Source of the DNA: an uncultured Planctomycetaceae bacterium
GTDB taxonomy: Bacteria > Planctomycetota > Planctomycetia > Pirellulales > PALSA-1355
Assembly (NCBI GenBank): GCA_963785305.1
Contig: CAWAUV010000008.1
Span: forward strand, 256,001 to 320,000
Direction: 5' to 3'
DNA length: 64,000 bases
The position numbers and the translations under genes were made by a program. Below are positions 16,745 to 35,610 of the stretch, one piece after another (positions within the stretch are counted from its first letter, which is position 1; each line of letters starts with the position of its first letter). The notes under the pieces were generated by a model that was given only the letters and a program-made list of their open reading frames with translations, searched no databases and had not been told where the DNA came from.

Positions 16745-16826
16745 GCGAGAGTGGCGGAACTGGCAGACGCGCTGGACTTAGGATCCAGTGGGGCAACCCG
16801 TGCAGGTTCGATTCCTGTCTCTCGCA
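16745..16826 (+). tRNA. tRNA-Leu(TAG)
   Basis: GCGAGAG/CTCTCGC acceptor stem, TGGCGGAACTGGCAGACGC D arm, CTGGA-CTTAGGA-TCCAG anticodon arm, long variable arm, GGTTCGATTCC T loop; CCA not encoded. Confidence 0.97.
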
Positions 16827-16919: not shown

Positions 16920-17062
16920 TGTCCCTCCCGAAAACCCCGTCGGAGGGGAGGGCGATCGGGATTAGCGTCGATTTCGCGAGGTTGGTTTCGGCGGAGCTCA
17001 AGAAAAATCGCCGGCGTTGGAGTAAAAACGGGCCCGGAGGGCCTGTTTTGGCTCATCGGCGC
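16920..17062 (+). repeat. Cassette-delimiting element copy 1 (IS-end-like)
   Basis: TGTCCCTCCCGAAAACCCCGTCGGAGGGG...GGAGTAAAAACGGGCCCGGAGGGCCTGTTTT. Confidence 0.9.
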
Positions 17063-19387
17063 GACGCCGCGATCATCGCCGCTGGAGACAGCGCATCGAC
17101 GACCCCGCTCTTGCCGACGCCCGCCGCGGCATTGACGGTAGCCAACTTGGCGATCGGGGCGCCGAGCTTGCCGAGCCAGCCGGGAACCGACACGTTCTAT
17201 CAGAACGCGATGGACGGCGTGGCCTACGGCTTCTCGTTCCAGCCGCAGACAGCCTACTACGACCCCGGCAATTTGAACGAGGACCTCACGCTAAGTTCCA
17301 CCGAAACCGCCGTCCGCGCCCCGCTCATCTACGATCAAGGCGGCACGAACACCCCAAGTGAAGTCGCCGCCGTGGCGATCATCCCGCCGACAGGCGAAAC
17401 GTACAGTATCGCGAATCTATCCGACGGTGGCGGAAGTGGCGGCGGAACGACCAGCCCCGATGGCGCCATCTGGACGCCATCGGCGGGCGACGTGAACGCG
17501 GCGGCCGTGTTCGATGAACTCGAATCGCTGGTTATGAGCGCCAATCCCAACCCGTCCGCGCCGAATGTTGGTAACCAGATCAATAGCATCCTGGGCGGGG
17601 GAACGGCGTCCTCGGGAGTCGGCGATACCTATGCGGCGACGCAAGCCGGCGGAAACGTTTCGGAACAAATCCTCGAAGCCGACGCGGAAGGAAACGCGGC
17701 GACACAGCCATCGATCGGCTCCAACACAACGCCGGTTTTCGATGGAACGTTGCGATTCTTGCGGCCCGCCCAGGTCTCGCAACTCGAGCAAGGGGGCTAC
17801 AGCGTTCAAACGATCCCGGGGCAAGGGGGGCCTGCCAGCATTACGTTGGTCGCGGTCGTCGACGGGCAGCTTTATCAGCTTTTGTACACGCAAAACAGCG
17901 ACTCGATTTACGCCGCCTATGAACTGGTGTCGGCCCATTCGATCGGTTCGGTGAGCGACTACAGTTCGCTGCAAGAACTCTCGAATGCGATAAGTTCGCT
18001 CAACTCCGCTGAAAACGCCGGCAAGTTGCTCGACCTCTACAAGAGCCAGAACGGCACGCAGACGCTGGACTACTTGCGAATGCTGCCGATCACCGGCACA
18101 ATCATCAACTTCCAAGATGGGAACTACATCGCCGGAACCATCTCGCTCGCCGGCGACGCGCTCTTGGTGCTGCCGGTCGCCCGACTCGGCATCTCCGCTA
18201 CGAACGCCGCCATGGCCGCAGCGAGGGCGGGCGCGACCGCGGAAGCCGCCGCCAAGGTCGGCGCCGAAATTGGTGGAAACGTTGCGGAGAATGTGACGGC
18301 TAGCGCCGCGGAGGCCGAACTCGCGACCGATTCAAGGTTGGCCGGAAACTTTAGTAAAGGCGGTTGCTTCACCGAAGACACGCTTGTCATTGTCCCATCG
18401 GAGGAAGTTCCGCGTGATAACGCACGCGCCGCCACGGCTACCATTGCCGCGACGGCGATCGGCTCGGTGCGGCTCGGCGGCCGCGTGCTGGGCGAGAACC
18501 CGCGTCCCTGGGAATACGACTCGCAATTTCCCGAGCCCGCGGCCGGCCAATGGGTTTGCATTAACGCTCGCGTCAAACGGCCCAACGCGGTTGCGGTGGA
18601 AATCGAACTGCTGCGGCCGCGAGCGTGGGTCGAGGCCAACGGCATCAAGGCGGGAGGCCGGTTTGAAATCAAGTACCCTGAGCTGGGTGTTATCGGCGAA
18701 GCCAGGATTATCTCGCTTTCGGCCTGCCCGCCGATCGCCGCGGGCGACGGCAACGTGGTGATTGGGCGGTTCGTTTCTCGCGAAATCAACAACCTTGTTC
18801 GCTTGCGACTGAGCGATGGCACTACGATCGAAGCGACCGATATCCACCCGATTTGGTCAACGGATCGCCGGGATTGGGTCGCGGCCGGCAAGCTCGAGCC
18901 CGGCGAGCAGGTGGAAAGCTTTGGAGAATTTATTTATGTTGAAAGCGTCGAGCGGATCGGGTATTGCCCCGCGGTTTATAATATCGAGGTGCATGGCCAC
19001 CACGTTTACCGCGTCGCTTCCGTAGGAGTGGTGGTCCATAACGCGGACCCGTTGTCCTGCGCCGCAAGTGTCCCTGGCGCGAGTAATGCCGGTGGCCTTC
19101 CTTGGGCCTCTTGGAATAATTTGCCAAAGGTAACAATTGCTGGCAAAGAGTATGCGAGCATCGGCGGCCGACTCTATACTGAGCACGCAATCGAACGAAT
19201 GATTCCAAGTGCTCTCTCGGGTTACGGACGAAGTGTCGCGCCGGCATTTGTTGAAGAAGCTATTAAGAGTGGTGCTACAACTACTCGTGTTGTGGATGGT
19301 GTGCTACGTACGATTCATACGCTTGGCGATTTAGTCGTAGTGACAGAGGATGGCGGCAAGATTGTTGTTACGGTGATCACGCATTAG
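17063..19387 (+). CDS. Orphan polymorphic toxin A: shared pre-toxin segment + Hint domain + BECR-like (DUF4258/CdiA-CT-like) RNase tip; 5'-truncated
   Basis: DAAIIAAGDS...IWTPSAGDVN shared with B and C; Hint CFTEDT (18365)...HPIW...VYNIEV...VHN (19042); tip GGRLYTEHAIERM..GRSVAPAFVEEAIKSG..IVVTVI. Confidence 0.8.
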   Translation, partial: DAAIIAAGDSASTTPLLPTPAAALTVANLAIGAPSLPSQPGTDTFYQNAMDGVAYGFSFQPQTAYYDPGNLNEDLTLSSTETAVRAPLIYDQGGTNTPSEVAAVAIIPPTGETYSIANLSDGGGSGGGTTSPDGAIWTPSAGDVNAAAVFDELESLVMSANPNPSAPNVGNQINSILGGGTASSGVGDTYAATQAGGNVSEQILEADAEGNAATQPSIGSNTTPVFDGTLRFLRPAQVSQLEQGGYSVQTIPGQGGPASITLVAVVDGQLYQLLYTQNSDSIYAAYELVSAHSIGSVSDYSSLQELSNAISSLNSAENAGKLLDLYKSQNGTQTLDYLRMLPITGTIINFQDGNYIAGTISLAGDALLVLPVARLGISATNAAMAAARAGATAEAAAKVGAEIGGNVAENVTASAAEAELATDSRLAGNFSKGGCFTEDTLVIVPSEEVPRDNARAATATIAATAIGSVRLGGRVLGENPRPWEYDSQFPEPAAGQWVCINARVKRPNAVAVEIELLRPRAWVEANGIKAGGRFEIKYPELGVIGEARIISLSACPPIAAGDGNVVIGRFVSREINNLVRLRLSDGTTIEATDIHPIWSTDRRDWVAAGKLEPGEQVESFGEFIYVESVERIGYCPAVYNIEVHGHHVYRVASVGVVVHNADPLSCAASVPGASNAGGLPWASWNNLPKVTIAGKEYASIGGRLYTEHAIERMIPSALSGYGRSVAPAFVEEAIKSGATTTRVVDGVLRTIHTLGDLVVVTEDGGKIVVTVITH

Positions 19388-19397
19388 AGTAATAAAC

Positions 19398-19667
19398 ATG
19401 GCCATCTATCCTGATATAATACTGGACCTGAAAGTAGCTTGTGCTCGCTATCGTCGACAAGAAATCACTGAGAAGCAACTGCAAGAGCATCTTTGGAAGG
19501 CGGTCCAAGGCGTTGTGGCTCTCGAAGAAAAAGCTCATCGCGCATTTCTCAGGCAGGCCGAAGGCAAGATTGAACTATTGCAATTCACGGTTTCCATCGG
19601 CGAACTTCGCAACGAGGTATCGGCAATCGTGGCTCAGATCGAGGACCACCTTAGTGGATGGCGTTGA
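19398..19667 (+). CDS. Putative immunity protein A (89 aa, helical)
   Basis: Small AT-richer ORF 10 bp after the toxin stop. Confidence 0.7.
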   Translation: MAIYPDIILDLKVACARYRRQEITEKQLQEHLWKAVQGVVALEEKAHRAFLRQAEGKIELLQFTVSIGELRNEVSAIVAQIEDHLSGWR

Positions 19668-19680
19668 TATTGTGGGTTCT

Positions 19681-19772
19681 TGTCCCTCCCGAAAACTCCA
19701 ACCGGGTGGAGCGGGGCGTGGGAGGGCGCGGTTTCGGGAAAGCAGTTTGGGCGGCGCGTCAAGAGATTTTCT
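19681..19772 (+). repeat. Cassette-delimiting element copy 2 (variant subtype)
   Basis: TGTCCCTCCCGAAAACTC...GTCAAGAGATTT; resembles the copy at 26668. Confidence 0.75.
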
Positions 19773-19783
19773 CGCGGGAAAAT

Positions 19784-19885
19784 CAAAGGGGTCAGGACTC
19801 ATTGATTTTGCTGGCGGTTGTTGGTAGGCTGGCGGACATGCCACGAGCCGACGAGCAATTCAAAGGGGTCAGGACTCATTGATTT
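19784..19885 (+). repeat. Two identical 25-bp direct repeats CAAAGGGGTCAGGACTCATTGATTT
   Basis: Copies at 19784-19808 and 19861-19885 with a 52-bp spacer. Confidence 0.85.
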
Positions 19886-19972
19886 CGCCGTTGGCGGCGT
19901 CGGCAACCCCACCGGCGGAACCTAGCTCGCACCCGGTCCGGCCCAGGCCGATTCCAACGCCGACCGCGTCTT

Positions 19973-22380
19973 TTGGTACGGACCGATTCCGACGCGCTGG
20001 CCGACAAGAACGCTTCGCTCTCGGACGACGCCACGCAAGAACAGCTCGGCGCCGCGATCGCCGGCGACGCGCTGGCGTACGTGCAGGCGCTCGCTCCGGC
20101 GGTCACGGCGTCGTTCGAGGCGCAGGGGCAAGCGCAGTATGCTTATGCCCTCGCGCAGGCGAGCGCCATCGAAGAATATCCCAACGGGATTTACGATTCG
20201 AATTACAACGCCGCGATGGCCACGGCGAGCGCGAATCTGCAAACGGCGCTCACCGCCGCCGGAGTGACTTACTCGTCGGCGGAGCTCGCCGCCCGCTCGC
20301 CGCAAGAGACGGCGATCGCCGCGGCCGAAGTCACGGCCGCGGGCCAAATCGCCACGAACATCACCACCTGGCAAGACGCCACCGCGGGCAACGATCAAAC
20401 GCTCGGCGTGTCGGCCGCCGAGGCGGCATTGACCGATGTGCTGAACGACGACGCGACGTACGAGCAGTACGACGTGCAAAGCGCCGTCGATTACAACACG
20501 CTCGCGCAGAACCTCGCGGCCGCGAGCCCGAGCGTTTATGCCAACGAAGGCGCCGTGCTGGCCAGCGCCGCGCTGACCAACGTGCAAACGACCGATAGCG
20601 CCTGGCTGACCCAGCAAACATCGCTGGCCAACGCCGACGAGAGCGAGTCCGTTACGGATGCCGAAGCGCAAGCCGCTCTCTTGGATGCCCAAGCCTCGGC
20701 CGACGCCACGCTCACGACCTCGACCGCCGCCGCCGAGCAATCCGGCGTGGCCGCCTCGCTGGCCGCCGACGCCGCGATCATCGCCGCGGGAGACAGCGCA
20801 TCGACGACCCCGCTCTTGCCGACGCCCGCCGCGGCATTGACGGTAGCCAACTTGGCGATCGGCGCGCCAAGCTTGCCGAGCCAGCCGGGGACCGACACGT
20901 TCTATCAGAACGCGATGGACGGCGTGGCGTACGGCTTCTCATTCGTGCCGCAAACGTCCTACAACGACCCCGGCAATTTGAACGAGGATTTGAACCTCGC
21001 CGCGACAGAAACCGCCGTCCGCGCCCCGCTCATCTATGACCAAGGCGGAACGAACAGCCCTAGCGAAGTCGCCGCCGTGGCGATCACCCCGCCGACAGGC
21101 GAGACATATCAAATCGCGAATCTAGCCGACGGCGGCGGCGGAAGCGGCGGAACTTCCAGCGGAACCGACGGCAACATCTGGACGCCCAGCGCCGGCGACG
21201 TGAACGGCGCGCCGGTGTCCGAGGGCGTCGGCCTGCTTCTCGCGGGCGCGAACTCGGGCGAGGGTTTGCAATACAACAGCGTTGTCGGCGCGGCCCCCTC
21301 GGGGTTCACCGACACCTATGCGGCATCCCAGGTTACCTTCGGGGCCACCGAACAAATTCTCTATGCCGACACGGAAAACAACGCCACGACAACGCCGCTA
21401 GGACCGGCGCCCGACCCGCTCGCCCTGAGTTACAGCACCGCCAAGGGCTTCTTTTCCGTCAGTGGTTCCCCGACCGACGGCGAAACCAACGAGGCGATTT
21501 CGCTCGCTGGGCAAATCGCCGCCAAACAGGCGAAGCTCGAGGCGAACAATCGGTTTCTCGAGTTCTTCGAAAGCCGATCCGTTCCGGTTCTGACCGAGAA
21601 TGCACAACTCACGCAAGAGATCGCTCAGCTTACCAAACAGTTCAACGACAAAGGCTACAATCGGCTCGAGTGGAGCGGAAGCTTCGGACCCGACATCGGC
21701 GGCTATGGCGGGACCGGGTTGGCCGGAGCCCAGTCGATCGCGCGGGGCCTCGTCTCAAGCAACGGCGCCCAGAGCGTCTTCATGGATGAGTTCCTCTTCC
21801 TGTACTCGGCCGGCGGCGTCGGAAAGCTGATCGGCAAGGGCGTGCTCAAAGGCGCGGGACGCGCCTTCGGCGCAGCGCCGGCGAAGATATACTGGCGGCG
21901 GACGCGGCCGAAGCCGGATTGGGAGCAGAGGCTGCAGGTAATTTGGGCGGGCGTGGACTAACCTCGACGGTCGGCGGGGTTCCGATTGACCCGGCCGACC
22001 TCGCCCGAATGAAGGCCGCGTTTGAGAAGAGCGGCGGATCAATCCTGCAGAACGCTGAAATTGATGCTTATCTTCGCTGGAGAGCCGAGCAGATGGGCGC
22101 GAGCAACATCGGTGGCGTAACATATAACGCAAAAGAGATTATATTGCCGACGAATGCGACCCGGACCGCCGTCTTCGAGGAATTCATTCATACGGCTCAG
22201 TTCAAGTCCGGGCGGGTCAATGAGTTGATCGTGAAGTACGGCAACGCGGAGGCCGAGAGGCTATTGGAAATCGAAGCAGCAAAAAAACTCATTCAAAACC
22301 AGAGCGCATGGGCGCTTCCGCAATCCGAAATAGACGCGGTAAGGCAACGCTTAATCCAGCTTGAAAAAGGGATGCCGTGA
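19973..22380 (+). CDS. Orphan polymorphic toxin B: Ala-rich pre-toxin domain + Tox-MPTase4-like zincin tip; frameshift ~21890
   Basis: Shares the pre-toxin segment with A and C; tip has TAVFEEFIHTAQ and LEIEAAKKLI motifs. Confidence 0.75.
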
Positions 22381-22658
22381 ACTATATGAATTTTCAATTT
22401 CGCGTACGAAAAGTGTGGGTAGCGCCAGCGCGACGGTTCATACACATCATCGGGGTAGTCGAAAACGGCGTGGTTGTTCCACCGGTGGTCGCGAGCGTGT
22501 CCGGGCACCCCGGTGCGACGGTTCGTATTTGCTCGATGGCAATTAGTGGATTCGATGCACAAGCGGGCAGACCGCGGGAACTCACCTTTGCCATCAGTGA
22601 ACCTACGATCGATCCCGCCGAGTTGGAAGGTTGTGTCCTGAGCGATGTTCAATCTTAG
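22377..22658 (+). CDS. Putative immunity protein B (93 aa, beta-rich)
   Basis: GTGA start/stop overlap with toxin B. Confidence 0.65.
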   Translation: MNYMNFQFRVRKVWVAPARRFIHIIGVVENGVVVPPVVASVSGHPGATVRICSMAISGFDAQAGRPRELTFAISEPTIDPAELEGCVLSDVQS

Positions 22659-22710
22659 AGCCTATCCAGCGACCAGGGCTTTGAAGCTAGCGTTTTCGTT
22701 GCTGGCGGGC

Positions 22711-22831
22711 TGTCTCTCCCGAAAACCTCATCGGAGGGGAAAACGATCCGGAGTAGGGGCGATTTGGCGGGGTTGGTTTCGGCGGGGCTCAAGAAAAATC
22801 GTCGGGGTTGGCGTGAAAACAGGCCCGAAGG
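22711..22831 (+). repeat. Cassette-delimiting element copy 3
   Basis: TGTCTCTCCCGAAAACCTCATCGGAGGGG...GTGAAAACAGGCCCGAAGG. Confidence 0.9.
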
Positions 22832-25084
22832 CACCGCGCTCGCCAATGCCGCGCTGACGAATGTGCAATCATCCGATAGCGCTTGGCTGACTCAACAAAC
22901 GACCTTGGCCGACGCCGATGAAGCGGAGTCGATCACCGAAACCCAAGCCCAAGCCGGCTTGCTCGATGCCCAAGCCGCCGCCGACGCCACCTTGACCAAC
23001 GCCGCCGCCGCCGAGCAATCCGGCGTGGCCGCCTCGCTGGCCGCCGACGCCGCGATCATCGCCGCGGGAGACAGCGCATCGACGACCCCGCTCTTGCCGA
23101 CGCCCGCCGCGCCGCTGGCAGTCGCCAATCTGGCGATCGGTTCGCCGAGTCTGCCGAGTCAACCGGCGACCGACACGTTCTACCAGAACGCGATGGCCGG
23201 CCCGGCGTACGGCTTCTCATTCGTGCCGCAAACGTCCTACAACGACCCCGGCAATTTGAACGAGGACCTCACGCTAAGTTCCACCGAAACCGCCGTCCGC
23301 GCCCCGCTCATCTACGATCAAGGCGGCACGAACAACCCCGGCGAAGTCGCCGCCGTGGCCATCACCCCGCCGACAGGCGAGACGTACAGTATCGCGAATC
23401 TAGCCGACGGTGGCGGAAGTGGCGGCGGAACGACCAATGCCGACGGCAACATCTGGACGCCATCGGCGGGCGACATCAACGCCGCCTTCCTAGCCGGCAG
23501 CACCTCGAAGACGGTCTCGCCAGCCGCCGCGCCCCAAGCCGGCGGTTGGAACGGAATCTCGGGCGCGGCGCCGGCCGTCGACTACGGAACGACCAACGCG
23601 ACGGTCTCGACATTATTGGACGACGGATCGCATTCAGCGGTTGTGCGGCAGGTGGCCGACAATTCTTCGTCGGACGGGACGAGTGGCGACCAGCCGATGA
23701 CGGTCCATGGAATTCCGATCCAAGGAATGGACGCTGATGGGAAGGTTTGGCTCGCGATTCCCAACTATCCGGAAGCGCTGCCGTCGACCACTGGAAGCGC
23801 CGCGCCGCGGGAACCACGTCGTGGGACGAGGCGGCGGCCGAATGGCGAGCGTACCAGGAAGACGTCGCCGCGATGGAGGACAATTCAAACGGATGGTTGG
23901 CGACGAGAACTGCCGCGGATGTCGAACAAACATGCTTCGTAGCGGGAACGCTGGTAGCGACACGCAATGGCTTTAAAGCGATTGACGAGATCACGATCGG
24001 CGATGAAGTGGCTTGCAAAAACGATGGCGATGTATACGGGGAAATGCATTGGCGCGTGGTGGACCGGATATTCAAGCATGCTCCGACGCCAATTCTAACC
24101 GTTGAAATCGAGCAACGCGCTATTCGCGGCACGGCGAACCATCCATACTGGGTCGACGGGAAAGGCTGGACGTATGCGGCGCAATTGCGGGTGGGCGATC
24201 AGCTCCTCGGCCATGACGGCCTCTTGCAACGAGTGACCGCGATCGTCGACAATGGCGAAATCGAGCCGGTTTTCAACATTGCCGTCGCCGAACACCACAC
24301 GTACTTCGTTGCCAGCGGGGATATGACAGTAACGGCGCTGGTGCATAATGATTATGTTATCACGGAACAATCCAGCGGCAGGACGTTAGTTTATTACCAG
24401 GCGAGCATTTTTGGTTATCGAACCGATAGCAAGGTACTAATCGGGTACCTGGAAGGCGAAAATGTCATTCATGTCGCGGCGGATGGCACAAAAACCGCGG
24501 CGCTGTTGAGCGCCGTGGAAGTCGAGGTGACGAGCTTGGGTACAACGGGCGATTGGGATCAATGGTTCAGCCAAAGCAGCTTGGCGAAGTGGCTGGAAGA
24601 ACATCCAAACGCAACGTACGGAACTCCGAATGAGAACGAGGCATCTATTTCGGCGGTCGGCACGCCGCCCCCAGGGATGGCAAACAAGGTCACCGGAGTC
24701 TTGGTCGCTCCAGCAACTGATACCGCGGCTCGGACCTATTCGGCCGGCATGGGTTGGGGAGGCTCATCGAGCAATTTGCCCCCGAATTCGATGCCTTCGC
24801 CGCCCCCTGACGAGCATGCGTTTGGAATGAGCGTCGGCAACAAGAACAAAGCCGCAGCAATTGAAGCCGTGATAGGTGTTGGCGAGGCCGGGATACTTGC
24901 AACGGACGAGGTCGTCAATGGAAGGAATTCAGTCGACTTTGTCGCATTCACCGTCGGGGCCCACGCTTATTTCTATCTCACTACTACGGATGGCAAGTAC
25001 ATTCCTTATTCCGGCCCATACAATGGCGCGGTGATCTTGAGCAACTGGCTCGGCTACGGTAAGAGTTTGCCGACCACGGATTAG
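22826..25084 (+). CDS. Orphan polymorphic toxin C: pre-toxin segment + pretoxin-Hint + uncharacterised tip; frameshift ~23790
   Basis: Shared segment ending IWTPSAGDIN; Hint CFVAGTLV (23933)...TANHPYW...VFNIAV...VHN (24349); ~245-aa unknown C-terminus. Confidence 0.78.
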
Positions 25085-25097
25085 ATTGCGGTTTGAG

Positions 25098-26657
25098 ATG
25101 AATGTTTTTCGGATTCTTAAAGGCGGCCGTTTTTTTATCGTGGCCGTCGTGTGCAGTGTCGCCGTGGCGGCACTCTTTGTCGCGGTTGAGTCGAGAAGAC
25201 GGCGGTCCGTTTCTCGCGATTTGATGGCATTTGGCGCAACCAGCCGCACGGTCGACGCCCCGGGGTCTATCGCCGGCGCACTCTTGGGGAAAAGCGACGG
25301 GCGCCGGATTGTTTGCTATTTAGAGGTTCCCGCGAAATCGGCGGCCGCGGCATTGGCGGCCGCTGGCGATTTGAGCCAACTTTTCGAGATCACGTTGAAC
25401 GGGGGCGAGATCGACGCGGAGCTGATCCATGCGTTACGGATCGCGGCTCAACTCGAGCGGCTTACCTTCCGCGACTGTCTCGTGAAGTCCCACGCGGTTT
25501 CCGGTATTTCCGAACTGAGGACCGTGAAGTGGCTTAAATTCGCGAATTGTGCTTTTGATCACAAGGCCCAGCTTTTCGAAGAACTTCCTATAAACATCGT
25601 CGAGCTGTTTTGCGAGAATTTGACGCTCGCCGATGCCGATCTGGCCCGCGTCGGCCGGCTTTCGAACCTCGTCTATCTATCGCTGGATGGCAATCCCGTT
25701 TCCGGGAAATGTCTTGGCGGATTCGAGCGCTTGCCGAAGTTGCGATCCCTGGACGTGTCGCGAACTCATTTCGATTGGCGCGGAATCCGCGAATGCTGCT
25801 CTAGAATGCACTTGTCGTCCGTCTTTGCGTCGGGGATAGACATAACGCCTGCCGAATTGCGGTCGCTTAAGACCGAGTTTCCGAACGTAAAAATCAAGAG
25901 CGATCTTTTCGATCGGCAACAGGCGCTCAGCGATGGATTCAAGCAGAGGCTAGTGGAAGCAAGTCAGCGCAAATCGCCTGGAATGCTCGATCGCGTATTA
26001 GTTGACGTCGATTTAGCATTGGCGAACGATTCTGAGAATCCCGAACTCTATGCTATTCGCGGTATCGCGCATGAAAAGCTTCAACAATGGAGGGACGCCG
26101 TCGACGATTTTAGCCGGTCAATCGATATCGAACGCGAGCCGAAATATCTAAGAGCACGGGCTGGTGCGTACGCTAAGCTTCATCGAGATATCGAATGCCT
26201 TCGCGATATAGACGAGGCTCTTGGAAAAGCCAATGCCAAGAGGATTCCGGCGGCGGCGGATATTCCGTTGTTAAAACTTAGAATCATCCTGCACATGGAA
26301 TCACATGATCCTCGGACGGCAATGTTGGATTGCGAAGCGATTGTGAGAGCGAACCCAAATGACGTCGGCGCTTGGATTTCGTATGCCGAGGCAAATTTTG
26401 CAATCGAACACTGGCGTAGCTGTATCGAGAATTGCAATCGAGCGCTCGCGATCAATCCGCGCGCGATCGAAGCATTGAATTTTCGCGCTCAAGCGAATGA
26501 GAAACTGGGGATGCGACAATTAGCAGACGCCGACCGCGAACAAATAGCTCGATTTAAATCTCGTGCGGTTCCTGTCCCTCCCAAAAATCAATCGGAGGAG
26601 AAGGCGATCCCAAGTAGGCTCGAATTCGTGATGTCGGCTGCGCGGAGCTCGATATAA
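25098..26657 (+). CDS. Membrane-anchored LRR + TPR protein (putative immunity C); last ~28 codons derive from repeat copy 4
   Basis: N-terminal TM (FFIVAVVCSVAVAALFVAV), LRRs (LVYLSLDGNPV, LRSLDVSRT), TPRs (AVDDFSRSIDI, CNRALAINP). Confidence 0.75.
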   Translation: MNVFRILKGGRFFIVAVVCSVAVAALFVAVESRRRRSVSRDLMAFGATSRTVDAPGSIAGALLGKSDGRRIVCYLEVPAKSAAAALAAAGDLSQLFEITLNGGEIDAELIHALRIAAQLERLTFRDCLVKSHAVSGISELRTVKWLKFANCAFDHKAQLFEELPINIVELFCENLTLADADLARVGRLSNLVYLSLDGNPVSGKCLGGFERLPKLRSLDVSRTHFDWRGIRECCSRMHLSSVFASGIDITPAELRSLKTEFPNVKIKSDLFDRQQALSDGFKQRLVEASQRKSPGMLDRVLVDVDLALANDSENPELYAIRGIAHEKLQQWRDAVDDFSRSIDIEREPKYLRARAGAYAKLHRDIECLRDIDEALGKANAKRIPAAADIPLLKLRIILHMESHDPRTAMLDCEAIVRANPNDVGAWISYAEANFAIEHWRSCIENCNRALAINPRAIEALNFRAQANEKLGMRQLADADREQIARFKSRAVPVPPKNQSEEKAIPSRLEFVMSAARSSI

Positions 26658-26665
26658 AGACGCCG
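26573..26665 (+). repeat. Cassette-delimiting element copy 4 (degenerate)
   Basis: TGTCCCTCCCAAAAATCAATCGGAGGAG..GGCGATCC..AGTAGG..GGAGCTC. Confidence 0.75.
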
Positions 26666-26667
26666 TC

Positions 26668-26770
26668 TGTCCCCGCCCCTCCCGAAAACTCGATCCGGGG
26701 GAGTAGGGGCGTGCCGGCCCATGGCCCTTCGCAAAATCGGGTTGGGCGTCACTGTCAAGGATATTTGTGA
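26668..26770 (+). repeat. Cassette-delimiting element copy 5 (variant subtype)
   Basis: TGTCCCC..CCCTCCCGAAAACTCGATCCGGGGGAGTAGGGGCG...TGTCAAGGATATTT. Confidence 0.75.
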
Positions 26771-26771
26771 A

Positions 26772-29700
26772 ATGGCGGCCGGCGCGGCTTACGAGTAGTC
26801 GGTCGAGCCGGGTTGGCTCGAGTATGTTTCCGAGAGCGATGCCGCAGGCGTGACCCAGAGCGATGCCCAGGCTTTGGCCGTCAAGACGCAGGCCGTGGCC
26901 GACGACGCGGCGGAATCGCAGTTCGCCCAAGCGGTGGCCGGCGCCGAGGAGACCGAGGCCGAGTCGCTGGCCGACGCCGACGAGGCGGCCTCCGAGTCGG
27001 GCGCCGCGGCCGACGCGGATCGTTCGCTCTCGGGGGTCGAGGCCGAGTCGACGTACAGCGTGGCGGTGGCCCAGGCCACGGCCGCGTACGACAACACGGC
27101 TGCCGGGGCCGAGGCGGCGCAAAGCCGGATCGTGTACGCCGCGGCGATGGCCGATATCGTCGCCAATCCCCAGATGCTGCTCGCTCCGAATCTGGCCGAT
27201 CCCGACACCGCCGACATCGCGACCGTGGACGAGGCGCGCCTCGCCCAGGACCAGGCGCTCGACGCCGCGAATCTGACGTTCACGACCAGCATCGAACAAG
27301 CGATGGTCGCGCGGGCCCAAACGCTGGGCGACGCCGATGTGGCGCTGGCGACCGGGGCGGCCGGCACGCTCGATACCGCCACCAGCGCCGCCGTCGCCGC
27401 GGGCAATGTGTTTGCCCGGGCCGAGGCCGGATTCGCCGGCACGCTGACCGATTCCCAGGCCGGCGACGAGGCGACCGACGAAGTCGCTTATGGCCAGGCC
27501 GAGGTGAACGACACGCAAACGGTCGGCGGCGACCTGACGACGTATGAAAACACGGTGAGCGAGGCGAACGGGACGGAGCTCGTGGCGCTGGGGTCGGCCG
27601 AGGGCACTTATCAGATCAATACGGCCGAGGCGAGCACTCAAGCCGCCGCCTCGGCGGCCAGTGTGGCGCCCGACTCGGCGAATCTGTTCGCGGCGCAGTA
27701 TGCCCAATCGTACGCCGCTTGGGTTAGCGATGTGGCGCCGTCGTACACGGCCTACTGGCAGACGATCGCTTCCACCAATGAAACGGCCGACCAGCAAGCG
27801 GACTCGAACGATGAAACGGCCGCCAATGCTTATGCCCAGGCCGATCTGGCGTATATCCAAACCACGAGCGCCGCCGACGCCACGCAAACCGAAAACGACA
27901 CCGCGGCGGACACGGCGTTCGACGTGGCGGACGTGGCGCTGGCCGGCGCGAGCCAGACGGCGAGCCAAGCGGCGGATGGGGCGTTGCAAGTGGCCGAGGC
28001 GCAAGCGCTCGATGTCTATGGCGTGGCGGCGGCCCAGGCGCAAATGGTTTTGCAAGTGGGCGATGATAGTGGCGGAGGAACCGCTGGCGGGCTCGTTCAA
28101 GCCCAGAACGCGAATTTGGAAACCGACGACGCGGCCCAACTCGCTTTCGACGTGGCCACGGCGGCATACAATGCGGGCGGCGACGTCGACACGTATCAAG
28201 CGGCCGTCGCCACATATTACGCGGCGCTCCAAACCGCCACCGCGACCGAGACCTCCGCCCAGACCACCGCCCAAGCGACGAATGCCACCTCGCTGAGCGC
28301 GGCCGCCTATCAATTGGCCGTCGCCCAGGCGAACGCCACGTATGGCGATGGCACGAGTTCCGGCGACGCCGCTTCCTGGTCGGGCGCCATGGCCGCCGCC
28401 GAATCGACCGCGGCGGTGAGCGAGGCCCAAGCGGTTCATGATCAGGCCGACGCCCTGAATCAAGACGCCAAGGCCGACGCGGATTCGTACGCCAACGCGA
28501 CGTACACCTGGACCGTGGCGTATGACTCCGCCGCCGCCACGGACACGAACCAAGACAACGCCGCCTATGCCGCCAGCGCCGCGCCGCAAGCGCAAGCGCT
28601 CGCTTCGCTCTGGGTGACCCAGGCCGATTGGCAGTCGGCCGTGGTCCAGGGCGGCGAATTTTACCGCCGCCTCGCCCGCGCTCGACGCGTTTCTGATCGA
28701 TCGGGCCGAGACCGAGGCCACTTGGATCGGGCCGGCGGGCGTTGCGTATGTCGGCTACGTGACCGGCGAAACGAGCACCGGGCAATCCGCCGCCGACGCG
28801 ATCACCTCGGCGATTCAAACCGATTCCGACGCCGACGCCCTGGCCACGCGCGACGCCGCGCTGGCCGACGACGGCGACGAGCTCACGGGCGCGAACTCCG
28901 ACATGGCCGCCGCGCTGGCCTTCGCCCAGTCCGACGCCCCGGCCGCGGCGACCGAGCTCGATCAAATGGCGGCGGCCACCGGCGCGTATACCGTGAGCGT
29001 GGCCGCGGCCCAGCAAGCGCTGGCGAACGGCGGGTCGCAAGACGATTACAACACCGCCGTCTCCGCCGCCACCACAACCCAACAATCGGCCAACCAAGCG
29101 GCGATCACCGACTATGCCTTGGCCCAGCTCGCGCTCGAAAACAGCGACACGCTCGCCGCCGCCGGCGCGAACCTCACCGCCGCCGATTCGCTCGCCAGCG
29201 CCGCGAGCACGCTGCAAACCTCGCAAGCCTCGAACGATCAAACGGCGGCTCTGGCGATCGCCGGAGCGATTCACGACGCCGCCGTCTCGAACGCGGCGGC
29301 CGACAGCGGCTATGCCATCGGTCAAGCGACGAGTTGGGACACGGCGGTCGACAATTTGTATGCGTCCGCGCCGAGCGTGTACTCGCAAGAAGCGGCGAGT
29401 CAGGCCGACGCCGCGAAGGCGCAAGTGGTCAGCGTGTCGAACGCGCTCTCGGCCAGCGAGACCACCACCGCCAACGCCAATCAGACGATGGCCGACACGA
29501 CCGCCAACGCCGCCGCGAGTTTGAACACGAGCATGGCGGCGGCGAGCCAGACACTTGCCGCCAACCAGGCGCAGGCAACCTACAACGGAGCGGTGGCGCT
29601 TGTCGCGGCCGATTCGACCGCCGCCCAGTCCGGCGCGGCGACCCCCCAGGGCCTTCCGATGCCCGCCGCCCCGGCGCCGGTGACCGCGGCGAATGTGGAT

Positions 29701-30891
29701 GTCGCGCCACCCACCTTGCCGAGCCGGCCGCCGACCGATGCGTTCAGCCCCACGACCAGCGCCCGGCTGGCCAGCGCCGCAGGCTCGAACGCCCAAGCGA
29801 TCAACCTCACCGGCGCCAGCACCCTGGCCGAAGGCGTAACCCTTTCGCAGACCGAAAACCAAGTCGCCACGGGGCAGACGATCACCGTCTCCCCGCCGAG
29901 CGGCTGGAGCACGGTCATCAATGTCGGCATCGGGATTTTTACAGGCGCGATTTCAGGTGCTCTAGCTGGCGGCACGGTGGGTGGTCTCTTGACAGGCGGC
30001 GCGGGCACGGCCTTCACGGCGATTGCGGGCGGTATCGCCGGCGCTGTCGCCGGCGGCTTCGCGGGTTATAATGCGACGGACGCGACGAGCGCGTTCACGA
30101 GTTCCCTCGGCGCCGGCATCCGGGCCGGCTTCGTGGCCGGCGTGGCGGGAGCGTACGTTGCCGCGGCCGCTTTGCCGGCCACCGCGGGGCTCCTGACGCA
30201 GATGACCGTCGCGGCCGCGGCCGGCGCGACCGCCGAAACCGCGGTTCAGACTTATGAGATCGGCGTCGGCTCGCGCAAAAGCGCCGACAACTTCCAGATC
30301 GCGGTAACCGCCGGCGCGTCCGCCGTCGGCCCGCTCGCCGCGAAAGTCATGTCCGCCGTCGACGACGGAATCACCAATTTAGTCGCCTCGTTCAAACAAC
30401 AAGCCCAGGGGCTCGCGAACGCCACCACGAGCGAAACGGCCAGTCTGAATGCGAATCCCCCAGAAACGGAGCCCCTCGTAACAACGCCCGAGGCGGAAGC
30501 GCAAGCCGCGAATGCGGCAAACAACGCGCCACCGGTAGCGTTACCGGTGAAGCCGCAAGACCCCGACGCCGGCATCTACCCGAGAAGTCCTTTATCAAAG
30601 CCGGTGTCCCCACCGCTTGAGCCCGGTGAATACGTTTATGTACAAGACGCCGATGGCATTGTTCACGTGGTCCCTAACGGCCCGCATATGCATCCGACCG
30701 TTCTTGGTAATGGTCAGCCTGCGGCGGCTGCCGGAGAGATTATTGTTGATGCAAATGGTGTTGTCATTGAAATCAATAATATCAGCGGAACTTTCCAGCA
30801 CGGCGCCAGTGTATTGGATGGAGTTAAAAATGCTCTCGAAAAGGCGGGATTGACCGTGAGCCCGAATGCAATCAATCCGTTTCAGTGGTAA
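26772..30891 (+). CDS. Orphan polymorphic toxin D: long Ala-rich region + glycine-zipper hydrophobic segment + Ntox43-like tip; in-frame TAG at 26796, frameshift ~28680
   Basis: ORFs 26850.. and 28759..30891; GAISGALAGGTVGG zipper; tip YVYV..HPTVLGNG..AAGEI...INNISGTF. Confidence 0.72.
29295..30509 (+). repeat. 1215-bp direct repeat, copy 1 (shared by cassettes D and E)
   Basis: Near-identical to 32000-33214; differences cluster at the 5' end. Confidence 0.95.
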
Positions 30892-30904
30892 AGGCAAGAT
30901 CGAA

Positions 30905-31267
30905 ATGAAATCTTCCGTAATACTGAAACGCGGCCAGCAGCTAGTTGCGATTACATTGGATGCGTTTGAGCTGGACGAGCGAAAGCTCGAATGCAATATC
31001 TCGTGCGAGCCGCGAATCAGCACGAGCAGCGGTGAAGCATATTCGCCGGGCGCCGTCCGCATCTTGTGTCTATCTGCAATGGCATTCGTGCGAAGGAAAT
31101 TAGGGCTTTCTGCTGGCCTAAGATTGTATGTGTCTGAGGTATACGGAATCGTCGACCGTTCTGATGAAGTCGCAATCTGTAACGCCGCAGCTATCGCGAT
31201 TGCGAAATCGCTACGAAATGATGGACGTACTCTGATTGAGAGCCATAGCGGCTGGTGTAGTGAATGA
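30905..31267 (+). CDS. Putative immunity protein D (~120 aa)
   Basis: AT-richer ORF 13 bp after the toxin D stop. Confidence 0.6.
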   Translation: MKSSVILKRGQQLVAITLDAFELDERKLECNISCEPRISTSSGEAYSPGAVRILCLSAMAFVRRKLGLSAGLRLYVSEVYGIVDRSDEVAICNAAAIAIAKSLRNDGRTLIESHSGWCSE

Positions 31268-31301
31268 ATTCAGACTTGTTGTTCCTGTCCCTGTTGTCCC
31301 T

Positions 31302-32000
31302 TGTCCCTCCCGAAAACCCCGTCGGAGGGGAATGACGATGCCGAGTAGGGTTGATTTCGCGAGGTTGGTTTCGGCGCGGCTCAGGAAAAATCGCCGGTGT
31401 TGGAGTGAAAACGGGTCCGGAGGGCCTGTTTTCACTCCTGGGCGCGTGGCCTTCCCTTCGGCGTGTTGGCTGTGGTTGAAAAGCATGGGGGCGCGAGGCG
31501 GCGTCAAGCGGCGCGCATGTAGCGGTGATGGAGGCCGCCGACTTGGGGAATGGATCGCACGGGGCCGCGTTCGGGCGGTTCGACCTCGCGAGGATTGGGC
31601 GGCGTTGCCCTCGAGCGAAAGATGGGTTCTTGAATTGTTGTAGTAGTCGAAGTAATCGGACAGGATGCGTTTCAAGTGGCGCTCGCCGAGCACGATGACG
31701 TGATCGAGACACTCGCGGCGGATCGAGCCGATCAGTCGTTCGACGTACGGATTTTCCCAAGGCGAGCGTGGCGAGCTGACGATTTGTTCGATTCCCAGAT
31801 TCTCGATGCGTCGTTGGAACACTTCGCCATAGATTCCGTCGCGATCGCGCTGCAAGTAGCGCGGCGCCGAATCATAGGGAAACGCTTCGACGATCTGCTG
31901 GGCGGTCCACTGGGCCGACGGATTGGCCGTGACATCGAAATGCAACACGCAGCGCCGATGGACGCTCAAGACGACGAAGGCGTAAAGCACGCGAAAGGTG
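31302..32000 (-). mobile_element. IS remnant: terminus (element copy 6) plus 3' part of an rve/integrase-core transposase (31504-32000)
   Basis: ATFRVLYAF..HFDVT..YLQRDRD.IY..SPWENPYVERLIGSIRRECLDH..GGLHHRY; 5'-truncated and frameshifted. Confidence 0.9.
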
Positions 32001-33214
32001 GCGGCCGACAGCGGCTATGCCATCGGCGAAGCGACGAGTTGGGACGCGGCCGTCGATGGTTTGTATGCGTCCGCGCCGAGCGTGTACTCGCAAGAAGCGG
32101 CGAGCCAGGCCGACGCCGCGAAGGCGCAAGTGGTCAGCGTGTCGAACGCGCTCTCCGCCAGCGAGACTACCACCGCCAACGCCAATCAGACGATGGCCGA
32201 CACGACCGCCAACGCCGCCGCGAGTTTGAACACGAGCATGGCGGCGGCGAGCCAGACACTTGCCGCCAACCAGGCGCAGGCAACCTACAACGGAGCGGTG
32301 GCGCTGTCGCGGCCGATTCGACCGCCGCCCAGTCCGGCGCGGCGACCCCCCAGGGCCTTCCGATGCCCGCCGCCCCGGCGCCGGTGACCGCGGCGAATGT
32401 GGATGTCGCGCCACCCACCTTGCCGAGCCGGCCGCCGACCGATGCGTTCAGCCCCACGACCAGCGCCCGGCTGGCCAGCGCACGCGGGCTCGAACGCCCA
32501 AGCGATCAACCTCACCGGCGCCAGCACCCTGGCCGAAGGCGTAACCCTTTCGCAGACCGAAAACCAAGTCGCCACGGGGCAGACGATCACCGTCTCCCCG
32601 CCGAGCGGCTGGAGCACGGTCATCAATGTCGGCATCGGGATTTTTACAGGCGCGATTTCAGGTGCTCTAGCTGGCGGCACGGTGGGTGGTCTCTTGACAG
32701 GCGGCGCGGGCACGGCCTTCACGGCGATTGCGGGCGGTATCGCCGGCGCTGTCGCCGGCGGCTTCGCGGGTTATAATGCGACGGACGCGACGAGCGCGTT
32801 CACGAGTTCCCTCGGCGCCGGCATCCGGGCCGGCTTCGTGGCCGGCGTGGCGGGAGCGTACGTTGCCGCGGCCGCTTTGCCGGCCACCGCGGGGCTCCTG
32901 ACGCAGATGACCGTCGCGGCCGCGGCCGGCGCGACCGCCGAAACCGCGGTTCAGACTTATGAGATCGGCGTCGGCTCGCGCAAAAGCGCCGACAACTTCC
33001 AGATCGCGGTAACCGCCGGCGCGTCCGCCGTCGGCCCGCTCGCCGCGAAAGTCATGTCCGCCGTCGACGACGGAATCACCAATTTAGTCGCCTCGTTCAA
33101 ACAACAAGCCCAGGGGCTCGCGAACGCCACCACGAGCGAAACGGCCAGTCTGAATGCGAATCCCCCAGAAACGGAGCCCCTCGTAACAACGCCCGAGGCG
33201 GAAGCGCAAGCCGC
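32000..33214 (+). repeat. 1215-bp direct repeat, copy 2
   Basis: Matches 29295-30509. Confidence 0.95.
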
Positions 33215-33602
33215 AAATACGGCGAATGATGCGCCGCCAACGGCGTTGGTCGGAGTCCCGGAAGAGAGCGCCGTTGTTACATTATGGAAAGCGCCACAAG
33301 GAGGGAGACTAAACGCAGCCGGCGAACTGACAGAAGGTTTTGATCCGAGTCAATATCCTGGCGACGGACCATATTTTGCAACCGACAAGGCGATTGCGGA
33401 AGGCTTTCGCGATGCATCGTACGGAAATGGGCTTCAAGAAGTAAACATTCCTCGAGGCATTTTTGATGAACTCGTCGCTAAGGGCATCATACAACCCGAC
33501 ACATTTTACGGGCCGGGACAAGCATGGCATGTACCGCCCGACGGGCTTGCGGAATTCAATGCCGCATTAAAGATGGGGCCGCCGAATGTTTATCATCCTT
33601 AA
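32000..33602 (+). CDS. Orphan polymorphic toxin E: D-type pre-toxin region + putative ADP-ribosyltransferase-like tip; indels ~32305 and ~32485
   Basis: Identical to D up to AEAQAAN, then TLWKAPQ..GFDP..GPYFATDKAIAE..YG.G..EV.IP; ART assignment is tentative. Confidence 0.7.
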
Positions 33603-33633
33603 AATTCGAGCTCATTTTCAATGGAGGGGCTTG

Positions 33634-34146
33634 ATGATTGAGATCGGCGTCGTTGTCAAAGGAATTGTTACGCGAATAGCACCATTTGGGATATTTATGT
33701 CCCATGGCGAAGACTTGGTCTTCGTGCCGCTAAGCAATTTCGCATGGATACCTAATCCCAAAGTAATTAGTCAATTTTATATTGGGCAGGAGAGAGATGT
33801 GCTCGTGGAGAGGCTCAACTACGACAAAAATATCTATACGGGTTCATTTCGACGTTTAGATCCAGAAGGCAATCCATACCGCATCTTGTCTAGATATCCG
33901 CCGTCGGCGACCTTTGATGGAATCGTTGTTATGGTGCATGCGAATGGTTTTACGATCGAGATTGATGGTGGTTGTCGTGGCGAAATATTCAAAACGCCGC
34001 AGAATGAAGATTTAACTAAAGGCGAAAAGGTTCGCGTTCGAATAAAATCTCTGGAAGTCGATGTGCAGAATCTCGTTTTCGAGTTAGTATCCCGTACCAC
34101 CGTCCCTCCCGAAAACCTCGTCGGAGGGGATGGCGATCCGGAGTAG
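33634..34146 (+). CDS. Tandem S1 (OB-fold) domain protein in the immunity position; C-terminus runs into repeat copy 7
   Basis: G.VVKG.VTRIAPFGIFM..VPLSNFAW and DGIVV.VHANGFTIEI..G.RG.I...GEKVRVRIKSLE resemble ribosomal protein S1 repeats. Confidence 0.75.
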   Translation: MIEIGVVVKGIVTRIAPFGIFMSHGEDLVFVPLSNFAWIPNPKVISQFYIGQERDVLVERLNYDKNIYTGSFRRLDPEGNPYRILSRYPPSATFDGIVVMVHANGFTIEIDGGCRGEIFKTPQNEDLTKGEKVRVRIKSLEVDVQNLVFELVSRTTVPPENLVGGDGDPE

Positions 34147-34308
34147 GAGCGAATTCACGGAGTCGGTTTCGGCGGTGCTCAAGAAAAATCGCCGGCGTTG
34201 GAGTAAAAACGGGCTCGGAGGGCCTGTTTTTACTGATCGGCGCATGGCCTTCCCTTCGGCGTGATGGCCGTCGTTGAAGAGCATGGGGGCGCGAGGCGGC
34301 GCGGGTGT
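34101..34308 (+). repeat. Cassette-delimiting element copy 7
   Basis: CGTCCCTCCCGAAAACCTCGTCGGAGGGG... including the extension seen at 31440-31500. Confidence 0.9.
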
Positions 34309-34965
34309 TGTCCCTCCCGAAAACCTCATCGGAGGGGATGGCGATGCGGAGTAGGGTCGATTTGGCGGGGTTGGTTTCGGCGGTGCTCAAGAAAAATCGC
34401 CGGCGTTGGAGTAAAAACAGGCCCGGAGGGCCGGTTTTTACTCCTCGCGCGCGGCCTTGCCGTCGGCGCGTCGGCCGTTGTTGGTGGGACATGGGAACCG
34501 GGCGGCGTCAAGCGGCGCGGGTGTAGCGGTGATGGAGGCCGCCGACTTGGGGAATGGATCGCACGGGGCCGCGTTCGGGCGGCTCGACTTCGCGAGCGTT
34601 GGGCGCGTTGCGGTCGAGCGATAGGTGTGTTCTTGAATTGTTATAGTAATCGAAGTAGTCGGATAGGATGCGTTTCAAGTGGCGCTCGCCGAGCACGATG
34701 ACGTGGTTCAAGCACTCGCGGCGGATCGAGCCGATCAGACGCTCGACGTAGGGATTCTGCCATGGCGAGCGAGGCGCGCTCACCACTTGTTCGATTCCCA
34801 GATTCTCGATTCGTCGTTGGGACACATCGCCATAGATTCCATCGCGATCGCGCTGCAAGTCAGCGCGGCGCCGAGTCATAAGGAAACGCCTCGACGATTT
34901 GCTGGGCGGTCCACGCGGCCGATGGGTTGGCCGTGACATCGAAATGCGCGACGCGGCGTCGGTGT
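34309..34965 (-). mobile_element. IS remnant: terminus (element copy 8) plus 3' part of rve transposase (34508-34965)
   Basis: LQRDRDGIYG..SPWQNPYVERLIGSIRRECLNH..VGGLHHRYTRAA; a diverged paralog of the 31302 remnant. Confidence 0.9.
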
Positions 34966-35610
34966 TCACTCGTAGCGGAAGAGTTGGCCGACGTTGTCAT
35001 CGTCGACCGCCACATGCAGGTACGCGCTGGTGATGCTCACGTTCGCGTGGCCGGCGGCGTCGCGGACTTCGGCTAGCGTGCGGCCGCCGGCCAGGGCGTG
35101 GCTGATGAAGGTGTGGCGGCCGTGGTGGATGGTGAGAGTCGCCAATCGGGCCGGGCCGAGCGACTTGCAGGCCGTTCGGAATCGCTTGCGGAGCGTGTGG
35201 CGCGAGAATGATTTTTCAACGCGGCCCGGCCGGAACGAGGCGACGAACGGTCGCGTGAGTACCGACGACTCGGCGCTGCTCGCTTGTCGATTGATCTTCC
35301 AAGAGGCCAAATCGGCGAGCGTGCCGGCGTCCCACCACAGTGGAACCATTCGCGACCGGCCGCCCTTCGACGCGCCCGTGCGAATGCGGATGTGCGGCCG
35401 GGCAAGTTCCGTGCGCACATCGCCCATTTGCAGATGGGCGATCTCGCTGGCCCGCAGGCCGCAACAGGCGGCCAAACGGAAGAGAATCAGATTCAAGCGG
35501 GTATTCGGCGAACGCGGGGCCTTGCGCTTGAGATCGGCCAGAACGGCGCCGATCTCCCGGCGGGTGAGAATCTTCGTGGCGTCGACTGTTCGGGGGCGAT
35601 ACGTTTGCAT
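34966..35610 (-). CDS. Tyrosine recombinase, catalytic domain only (~214 aa)
   Basis: GLRASE (R), SKGG (K), HHGRH (HxxR), AGHAN (H), TSAYL (Y); no N-terminal core-binding domain. Confidence 0.92.
   Translation of the reverse strand: MQTYRPRTVDATKILTRREIGAVLADLKRKAPRSPNTRLNLILFRLAACCGLRASEIAHLQMGDVRTELARPHIRIRTGASKGGRSRMVPLWWDAGTLADLASWKINRQASSAESSVLTRPFVASFRPGRVEKSFSRHTLRKRFRTACKSLGPARLATLTIHHGRHTFISHALAGGRTLAEVRDAAGHANVSITSAYLHVAVDDDNVGQLFRYE

Follow-up and report, generated by a model that had tools for sequence, protein, structure and literature searches.

The window analysed here, a stretch of 64,000 nt from contig CAWAUV010000008.1 of an uncultured Planctomycetaceae bacterium (positions 256,001 to 320,000), carries eight copies of a repeated element that stands like a delimiter between the modules of a polymorphic-toxin array. 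The element is the right end of an insertion sequence (IS), and its copies are probably solo right-end remnants of a decayed IS481/IS3-like IS, left behind by deletions that created orphan toxin fragments. An earlier note on this DNA, made from the letters alone, had taken the element to be at least an IS terminus, and this is both borne out and extended by the presence of a complete relative in another Planctomycetota genome (L084). The element comprises the right inverted repeat (IRR) and the adjoining subterminal non-coding region of an IS which, in full, has a single open reading frame (ORF) of ~340 aa in ~1.35 kb.

The first 24-31 nt of the element (TGTCCCTCCCGAAAACYCNRTC...) are the terminal inverted repeat, which is the sequence recognised by the transposase. 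The next ~200 nt are non-coding and lie between this repeat and the stop of a transposase encoded on the opposite strand. In L084 the complete IS occupies 1167-2516 (~1.35 kb), with inverted repeats (1168-1198 and 2485-2515) of 31 nt each that are 81% complementary, a single-ORF transposase 64% identical to the window fragment and a right repeat ~215 nt past the transposase stop. L160 and L186 likewise carry both ends, and an IRR lies ~200-225 nt past the transposase stop in L160, L186, L159, L187, L164, L161, L172 and L171. The transposase was found in 27 of 301 genomes of the same order, and its homologues number more than 8000, with a length of ~340 aa and HTH_32 and rve_3 domains. Matches by tblastn extend over residues 1-339 without stops in L159, L160, L186, L161, L162, L164 and L187; since these are uninterrupted and the homologues are ~340 aa long, the element has one ORF as in IS481 and not the orfA/orfB frameshift of IS3. 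A minus-strand rve_3 transposase 3′ end follows directly beyond the element in seven genomic copies, and the two window copies said earlier to continue into such ends do so (31211-31990 and 34508-34969, rve_3 E-values 5.3e-16 and 2.9e-13). When one genome per prokaryote species was scanned with a 16-mer, at least 119 loci were obtained, to be read against a chance expectation of ~280 matches in 596 Gb by our own arithmetic, while the 16-mer extended by YCNRTCCG identified 46 distinct ends in other genomes, mostly Planctomycetota.

Within the window the sequence GTCCCTCCCGAAAAC was matched (two mismatches or fewer) at eight sites, all on the plus strand (match starts 16921, 19682, 22712, 26574, 26675, 31303, 34102 and 34310), in agreement with the eight copies first counted. 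Dinucleotide shuffles average 0.25 matches, with 0 of 100 reaching eight. The copies are of two subtypes which are alike only over the first ~30 nt, namely A type (16920, 22711, 26573, 31302, 34101 and 34309) and B type (19681 and 26668). Two foldings of the element are referred to throughout, hairpin 1 in the inverted repeat and hairpin 2 in the non-coding region. The copies are as follows:

16920..17063, plus strand: copy 1, A type; IRR terminus and 144 nt, matching positions 1-145 of the IS reference
19681..19772, plus strand: copy 2, B type; first ~30 nt as in A type, interior different, hairpin 2 absent
22711..22831, plus strand: copy 3, A type, 121 nt; ends within the loop of hairpin 2, with a toxin fragment joined on
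26573..26630, plus strand: copy 4, A type, ~58 nt
26668..26713, plus strand: copy 5, B type, ~40 nt; stuttered tip
31302..32007, plus strand: copy 6, the longest in the window; IRR and non-coding region at 31302-31504
34101..34301, plus strand: copy 7, A type, 201 nt; hairpin 2 at 34200-34236, less two outer pairs
34309..34969, plus strand: copy 8, A type; IRR and non-coding region, hairpin 2 at 34408-34444

An alignment of 15 long genomic copies shows a left boundary that is sharp at TGTCCC and a right boundary that differs from copy to copy. Copy 1 breaks just past hairpin 2 (17019-17055), of which the inner stem is kept, and is joined to a PT-HINT toxin fragment; it lies 93 nt after a tRNA-Leu gene. 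Copy 2 begins 13 nt past the stop of an 89-aa ORF (19398-19667), and the core of copy 5 begins at 26674 behind its stuttered tip TGTCCCCGCCCCTCCCG. Copy 6 has hairpin 1 at 31305-31330 and hairpin 2 at 31402-31438, followed by the 3′ part of the transposase on the minus strand (stop near 31505), which corresponds to approximately residues 172-339 of a 339-aa relative. An upstream S1-domain ORF (33586-34146) runs 45 nt into copy 7, which is itself interrupted by copy 8 in the same orientation. The minus-strand transposase 3′ fragment of copy 8 (34508-34969) stops where a recombinase gene ends.

Stacked partial tips (TGTCCCT, TGTCCCT, then the full TGTCCCTCCC...) precede a complete terminus at window positions 31275-31301. 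Such stacks also occur at C7:32392, C8:378806, C8:370984 and C9:157137, and in the genomes L042, L061, L098 and L034. Together with the location of copy 8 within copy 7, they suggest that the IS repeatedly inserted into its own tip in the same orientation and that recombination followed. Insertion targeted to inverted repeats is described for IS30 and IS911 in the portion of PMC9333248 consulted. It was discarded as a source of the stacked tips, as it yields left-right junctions and not direct right-right stacks.

The source assembly (G000; 6.4 Mb in 9 contigs, 85% complete) contains 37 termini in total, 36 of them from among 51 pattern matches and one found by BLAST; the other 15 pattern matches were set aside, 13 having no further similarity and two being stutters beside a counted terminus. 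None of the 37 is a left end, and neither the left signature nor an N-terminal transposase sequence with a left repeat was found in the assembly. Just two sites preserve sequence from the N-terminal part of the transposase, C7:31220 and C8:379703, the latter starting at residue 112. A frameshift disrupts the C7 copy, and an unrelated high-copy repeat of 2.35 kb truncates it 17 nt upstream of the start codon. With no left end, no intact transposase and the C7 copy in this condition, the IS is extinct in this genome, and what is left of it consists only of right-end pieces of 30 to 900 nt.

At least 26 of the 37 termini lie within six polymorphic-toxin clusters as identified with Pfam, these being either PT-HINT with AHH, Ntox8 and Imm11, or RHS with Ntox46 and TNT. 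The flank of a 27th (C9:157156) resembles RHS repeats, as judged by eye. Gene context was viewed for 27 of the 37 termini, namely the 26 in clusters and C9:157156. The element has the orientation of the toxin genes in all six clusters, and 31 of the 37 termini have the end of a co-directional ORF (80 aa or longer) in the interval from -80 to +60 nt, compared with 40% of 3000 random positions. The same layout is seen in a Phycisphaerales metagenome-assembled genome (MAG; L065, 2431-2600), where the 3′ end of an RHS gene, two small ORFs, the terminus, ~90 nt and an RHS fragment follow each other, the terminus being co-oriented with the RHS toxin.

In related ISs the left end has a subterminal signature of its own (TCCGTCCT..CAAGGACTTGCG). 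Left-end-type termini in L015, L021, L036, L071, L092, L053, L093 and others have a subterminal hairpin, GTCCTYG...CAAGGAC, the arms of which change together between genomes (e.g. CCTTT..AAAGG in L053). The hairpin may be a structure conserved near the start of the transposase gene. A further Planctomycetota MAG, L074, has two inverted copies of the terminus 493 nt apart, resembling a miniature inverted-repeat transposable element (MITE) derived from the same IS group. The window element is not a MITE, because no cluster has an inverted partner and the termini of one cluster share their orientation.

The setting of these copies in the window is an array (16919-34146) made up of genes and fragments of PT-HINT polymorphic toxins, for which the following features are relevant:

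16745..16826, plus strand: tRNA-Leu, at the left edge of the array
16919-19387, 19973-21961, 22764-25084, 26850-30891 and 31995-33602: PT-HINT genes or fragments
31998..32007: transposase/toxin junction, with ~10 nt of microhomology (GGCGGCCGAC) at the joint

Each toxin ORF is followed by small ORFs or by a TPR/LRR or S1-domain ORF, which are likely to be immunity genes. Several of the toxin ORFs appear to be frameshifted. The tRNA-Leu gene was considered as the attachment site of an island and dismissed, as a search of the rest of the window turned up no repeat of its 3′ half.

One joint between the IS and a toxin gene can be read directly. The toxin sequence at 29290-30077 is duplicated at 31995-32782 with 96-100% identity, and the transposase remnant of copy 6 ends at about residue 172, where it is joined to this duplicate. 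The microhomology GGCGGCCGAC at the joint identifies a deletion that ran from inside the IS into the next, once longer, toxin gene. Other junctions lie at varied positions of the IS reference (145, 122, 58 and so on), a scatter such as independent deletions would give, and these joints may have formed in the same manner. The IS would have been located between toxin modules in tandem, its transposase gene running antisense to the toxin operon, and only copies in this orientation would have persisted. Microhomology-mediated deletions would then have taken the left half of the IS as well as the 5′ part of the toxin gene that follows, each of them leaving a 5′-truncated orphan toxin fragment behind a solo right end. 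Deletions to the right would be tolerated, the duplicate toxin genes being dispensable, and those to the left would be barred by the immunity gene; the right end would thus survive because the adjoining immunity gene of the preceding cassette cannot be lost. Such a history would leave remnants of the right end only, tightly abutting the preceding gene.

Hairpin 1 is formed by CCCTCC-C-GA and TC-GGAGGG with one bulged C and occupies positions 4-12 and 21-29 of the inverted repeat. The form given in the earlier note is found in the copies at 16920, 31302, 34101 and 34309 but not in the other four: at 22711 a C-to-T change results in a G.U pair, 26573 has a weaker variant and pairing is in a different register in both B copies. 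The energy of the hairpin lies within the range of dinucleotide shuffles (z-scores of -1.36 and -1.68 on the plus strand and -0.21 on the minus strand; -0.14 and +0.52 in the B copies). Over the first 34 nt, 30 of the 37 ends of the source genome reach -9 kcal/mol or better (mean -10.8), compared with 2 of the 46 related ends elsewhere (mean -3.3 kcal/mol) and 8.6% of constructs in which the repeat was joined to random genomic 14-mers. Since strong folding is rare in the related ends, the G-rich arm is peculiar to the IS lineage of this genome and common to its A and B types. Possibly compensatory differences were seen between C7:1613947 (CTCTC/GAGAG) and C7:2096117 (CCCTC/GAGGG), and between L186 (CCATCC/GGATGG) and its sister L160. 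Because the copies share descent and the sequence lies within the transposase-binding repeat, hairpin 1 was treated as part of that repeat. It is a partial self-complementarity of the inverted repeat of this lineage, with no demonstrated role of its own, and the case for selection on its structure is weak.

Hairpin 2 has a different character. At 31402-31438 it consists of a 17-bp stem of -29.3 kcal/mol with a z-score of -6.67 on the plus strand, none of 200 shuffles folding as well; the z-score is -5.76 on the minus strand and -5.74 for the copy at 34408. The centroid fold of the whole element contains no other helix, and the element as such is not unusually stable (z-scores -0.84 and -1.11). 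Within the window hairpin 2 is complete only in the copies at 31302 (31402-31438) and 34309 (34408-34444), is represented by its inner stem only at 16920 and is absent from 19681, 26573 and 26668. Genome-wide it is kept in 17 copies, and four more are cut within it. The 17 copies form the alignment A1, from which window copy 22711, C7:2096117, C9:157156 and C7:2079125 were excluded as truncated inside the hairpin.

The compensatory change reported earlier between GTG..CAC and GTA..TAC was confirmed and falls at A1 columns 11/37, where seven copies have GC, five AU and one GU with four unpaired; GC and AU each occur in both the A and B types. The broader claim that the copies are diverged yet keep their stems holds in part for these 17 copies, in that 88.6% of cells are paired as opposed to 41-55% when the pairing is slid, but only 3 of the 17 pairs have changed on both sides. 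These two-sided changes involve seven cells, a count reached by 15 of 500 shuffles, and the covariation score is reached by 27 of 500, in sequences that are related by descent. In RNAalifold, covariation contributes -0.34 kcal/mol to the hairpin and +1.34 kcal/mol to the element taken as a whole. Support for covariation and for structural selection on hairpin 2 is therefore graded as modest. G.U pairs occupy 24 cells on the plus strand and six on the minus strand, which is a hint that folding as RNA takes place on the toxin-sense strand.

In form, hairpin 2 has an A-tract, a GC stem with a 3-nt loop and a T-tract, and is terminator-like in both directions. Sequences resembling terminators between the limits of an IS and its transposase gene are reported across families in the parts of PMC13548323 consulted. 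A simple terminator scan picks out 34420-34432 (both strands) and 17043-17031 (minus strand), leaving the reference copy at 31402 unflagged. It is about an even call whether hairpin 2 functions as a 3′ terminator or insulator of the IS. In this role it would close off the transposase gene and block read-in from the neighbouring operon, and in the remnants it would now end the transcription of each toxin-immunity cassette. The plus strand might alternatively encode a small or antisense RNA ending at hairpin 2, which once repressed the transposase and is perhaps still made. This would fit with the tolerance of G.U pairs on the strand antisense to the transposase (24 cells versus 6) and with a stem longer than a terminator needs, but the scan found no promoter-like site in the elements and Rfam gave no match. 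Such an RNA is rated as very unlikely. At the Rfam gathering threshold the whole window yields only the tRNA-Leu, and at E <=1 the region 31250-31560 has one chance microRNA match (19.6 bits against a cut-off of 67).

A number of observations weigh against the interpretation of the element as a decayed IS481/IS3-like end bearing a terminator. The full-length relatives P0002, P0056 and P0014 fall below the NCBIfam cut-offs, scoring 94-97 bits against 224 for IS481 and 95-103 bits against 160 for IS3; for this reason the family name is approximate and "IS481/IS3-like" is best read as unclassified. No target-site duplication was seen around full relatives when the flanks of L084 and L186 were compared, and one would not be visible at a solo end. 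The terminator-like sites in the region number 23 against a shuffle mean of 23.5, the T-tract is short (4-5 T) and the helix reaches six pairs past it, with compensatory changes in these outer pairs; six outer pairs exceed the need of a simple terminator. Related ISs elsewhere have unrelated sequence in the place of hairpin 2, and a metagenome collection gave no match to its exact inner sequence. Hairpin 2 is for these two reasons not a family-wide feature. The same collection gave no match to the A-type hairpin-1 sequence, and a search for the 215-nt element in 61 related genomes found it in the source genome, with one weak 42-nt match besides. The ratio of 37 right ends to no left ends and the uniform orientation in six clusters exceed what neutral decay would predict, and left ends could sit in unassembled parts, given a genome that is 85% complete and in 9 contigs. 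The account of the right-end excess and orientation bias that we infer from the deletions is incomplete.

The same excess would be accommodated if the host had kept the right end as a cassette delimiter, serving as terminator or insulator and as direct-orientation homology for unequal crossing-over and cassette exchange. Besides the 37:0 ratio and the co-orientation with toxin genes in 6/6 clusters, such a boundary module would fit with the abutment of 31 of the 37 termini to the 3′ end of a co-directional ORF, the layout in L065, the strong folding of the first 34 nt in this genome (30/37 at -9 or better, against 2/46 elsewhere and 8.6% of random joins) and the 24 to 6 preference of G.U pairs for the toxin-sense strand. 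It is nevertheless unlikely. The truncations are arbitrary, with hairpin 2 kept in 17/37 and cut in four more, and a selected terminator should persist better; shared descent means that the shared hairpins are not independent, the covariation is modest and L065 is a single example. Extended to the phylum, the proposal would be that an IS right-end module was recruited as the standard boundary of Planctomycetota toxin cassettes, a terminator or insulator and direct-repeat homology patch that related transposases might act on in trans. The ratio of ends, uniform orientation, tight abutment to immunity genes, lineage-specific terminal hairpin and L065 layout are the grounds for this idea, which is rather improbable; if true, such recruitment would organise the gain, loss and silencing of orphan toxin-immunity modules.

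It is also conceivable that the IS itself moved the modules, the right end and surrogate sites carrying toxin C-terminal and immunity modules into arrays by one-ended transposition as in ISEcp1, and so fixing their orientation. The constant orientation and direct abutment to the preceding cassette agree with this, and the stacked partial tips (repeated TGTCCCT before a full terminus) seen here and in L042, L061 and L098 suggest repeated end-directed events. However, the genome has no intact transposase of this IS, surrogate ends and target duplications were not identified, and the right boundaries are internal truncations with microhomology and not joints made by a transposase. One-ended mobilisation is thus highly improbable, and deletion from inside a decaying IS is the preferred explanation.

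The earlier note had also raised the idea of a single-stranded recombination site analogous to the attC sites of integrons, which would be used to shuffle cassettes by the following gene product:

34966..35670, minus strand: tyrosine recombinase, 234 aa; generic, single copy in the genome

The presence of an element at the 3′ end of every cassette, a bulged hairpin alongside a long imperfect one, and a tyrosine recombinase at the end of the array are the points in favour of such a site. The idea is not supported. On integron-integrase models the recombinase scores 41 bits against 265 (TIGR02249) and 19 against 435 (PRK15417). Its gene has no second copy in the genome and is lacking from the five further toxin clusters in which the element is present. 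As this gene interrupts a transposase remnant, the recombinase looks like a later arrival. An attC site has the inverse core RYYYAAC and the core GTTRRRY at the two ends of one imperfect palindrome. In the element such core motifs were not seen on comparison by eye with this consensus, TGAAAAC and GTTTTCA do not fit, and the palindrome spans only 37 of ~210 nt. Moreover, hairpin 1 is the inverted repeat common to complete ISs, and hairpin 2 is absent from 3/8 window copies and cut or damaged in three more. An attC-like function is accordingly given almost no credence.

Several other repeats were encountered near the IS ends. C5:484776 was at one point a candidate for the left end of an IS3-type element sharing the repeat and proved to be a B-type right end with an unrelated IS3-family insertion, which has its own TGAGG... 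repeats, a 3-bp duplication and five copies in the genome. These are located at C5:483400-484745 (L196), C7:1236332, C7:1383866, C8:483220 and C8:1480921, with an orfA beginning MPRKRR... and an orfB with an rve domain. Three of the five have a 100% identical orfB, and the element looks recently active. A 46-nt match near two other copies (C7:31101-31146) was considered as the missing left end and rejected, since it belongs to the separate 2.35-kb high-copy repeat. This repeat (C7:28794-31146 and at least 25 other sites, 97-99% identity) truncates the only near-full transposase copy and is probably the group II intron-like element to which the RVT_1 ORFs seen in L189 belong. A further short repeat, AAAGGGGTCAGGACTCATTGA (reverse complement ATGAGTCCTGACCCC), is present in the window at 19785-19805 and 19862-19882 and at 38 genome sites (two mismatches or fewer), compared with none for a reversed control. 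In toxin arrays it is frequently found 50-500 nt away from a copy of the IS end and points the same way, and it may be the end of another small mobile element.

Viewed in this way, the array consists of PT-HINT toxin-immunity modules in tandem, a simpler reading than an integron-like one. The deletions proposed here offer a concrete route to orphan toxin fragments, by IS insertion and microhomology-mediated deletion, with the right end marking the scar. For the annotation of Planctomycetota genomes it is useful to know that such ends could be mistaken for novel RNAs or recombination sites. Of these findings, only the excess of similarly oriented right ends could lead somewhere new.

The element has in common with the ends of IS481 and IS3 elements a TGT terminus, a 24-31-nt repeat shared by complete elements, a single ORF of ~340 aa with helix-turn-helix and rve_3 domains and relatives of ~1.35 kb. 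It also lies tight against flanking coding sequences, a juxtaposition noted for IS481 elements in the passages of PMC13548323 consulted. It differs from these families in its scores below the cut-offs, the lack of a visible target duplication, the occurrence here of right ends only and their concentration in toxin arrays. With integron attC sites it shares a repeated, foldable sequence at the 3′ boundary of cassettes and a nearby tyrosine recombinase; unlike these, it is an IS end with a transposase tail, its hairpins cover only part of its length, an integron integrase is lacking and copies lie far from any recombinase. Like solo inverted repeats, MITEs and the remnants of H-rpt (ISAs1-like) in the Rhs elements of Escherichia coli, the window element is a non-autonomous leftover of an IS in a rearrangement-prone toxin locus, but it is distinct from MITEs in having no inverted partner. 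Hairpin 2 is similar to bidirectional intrinsic terminators and the hairpins internal to ISs, as far as these are covered in the consulted parts of PMC13548323, in its A-tract, GC stem, 3-nt loop and T-tract and in its location between the transposase stop and the IS end. It differs from such terminators in having just 4-5 T and a helix that continues 6 bp past the tracts, and its activity is a prediction. In gene organisation there is a parallel with the orphan modules of contact-dependent growth inhibition (CDI) and Rhs loci, among which IS and transposon sequences are described in the part of Poole et al. (2011; PMC3150448) consulted. Those arrays, on the same partial basis, also consist of 5′-truncated toxin fragments with their own immunity genes, varying upstream conserved sequence and transposable elements. 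In the present case, by contrast, the toxins are of the PT-HINT and RHS types, the genome is that of a member of the Planctomycetota, and it is one IS end, in one orientation, that stands before most of the orphans.

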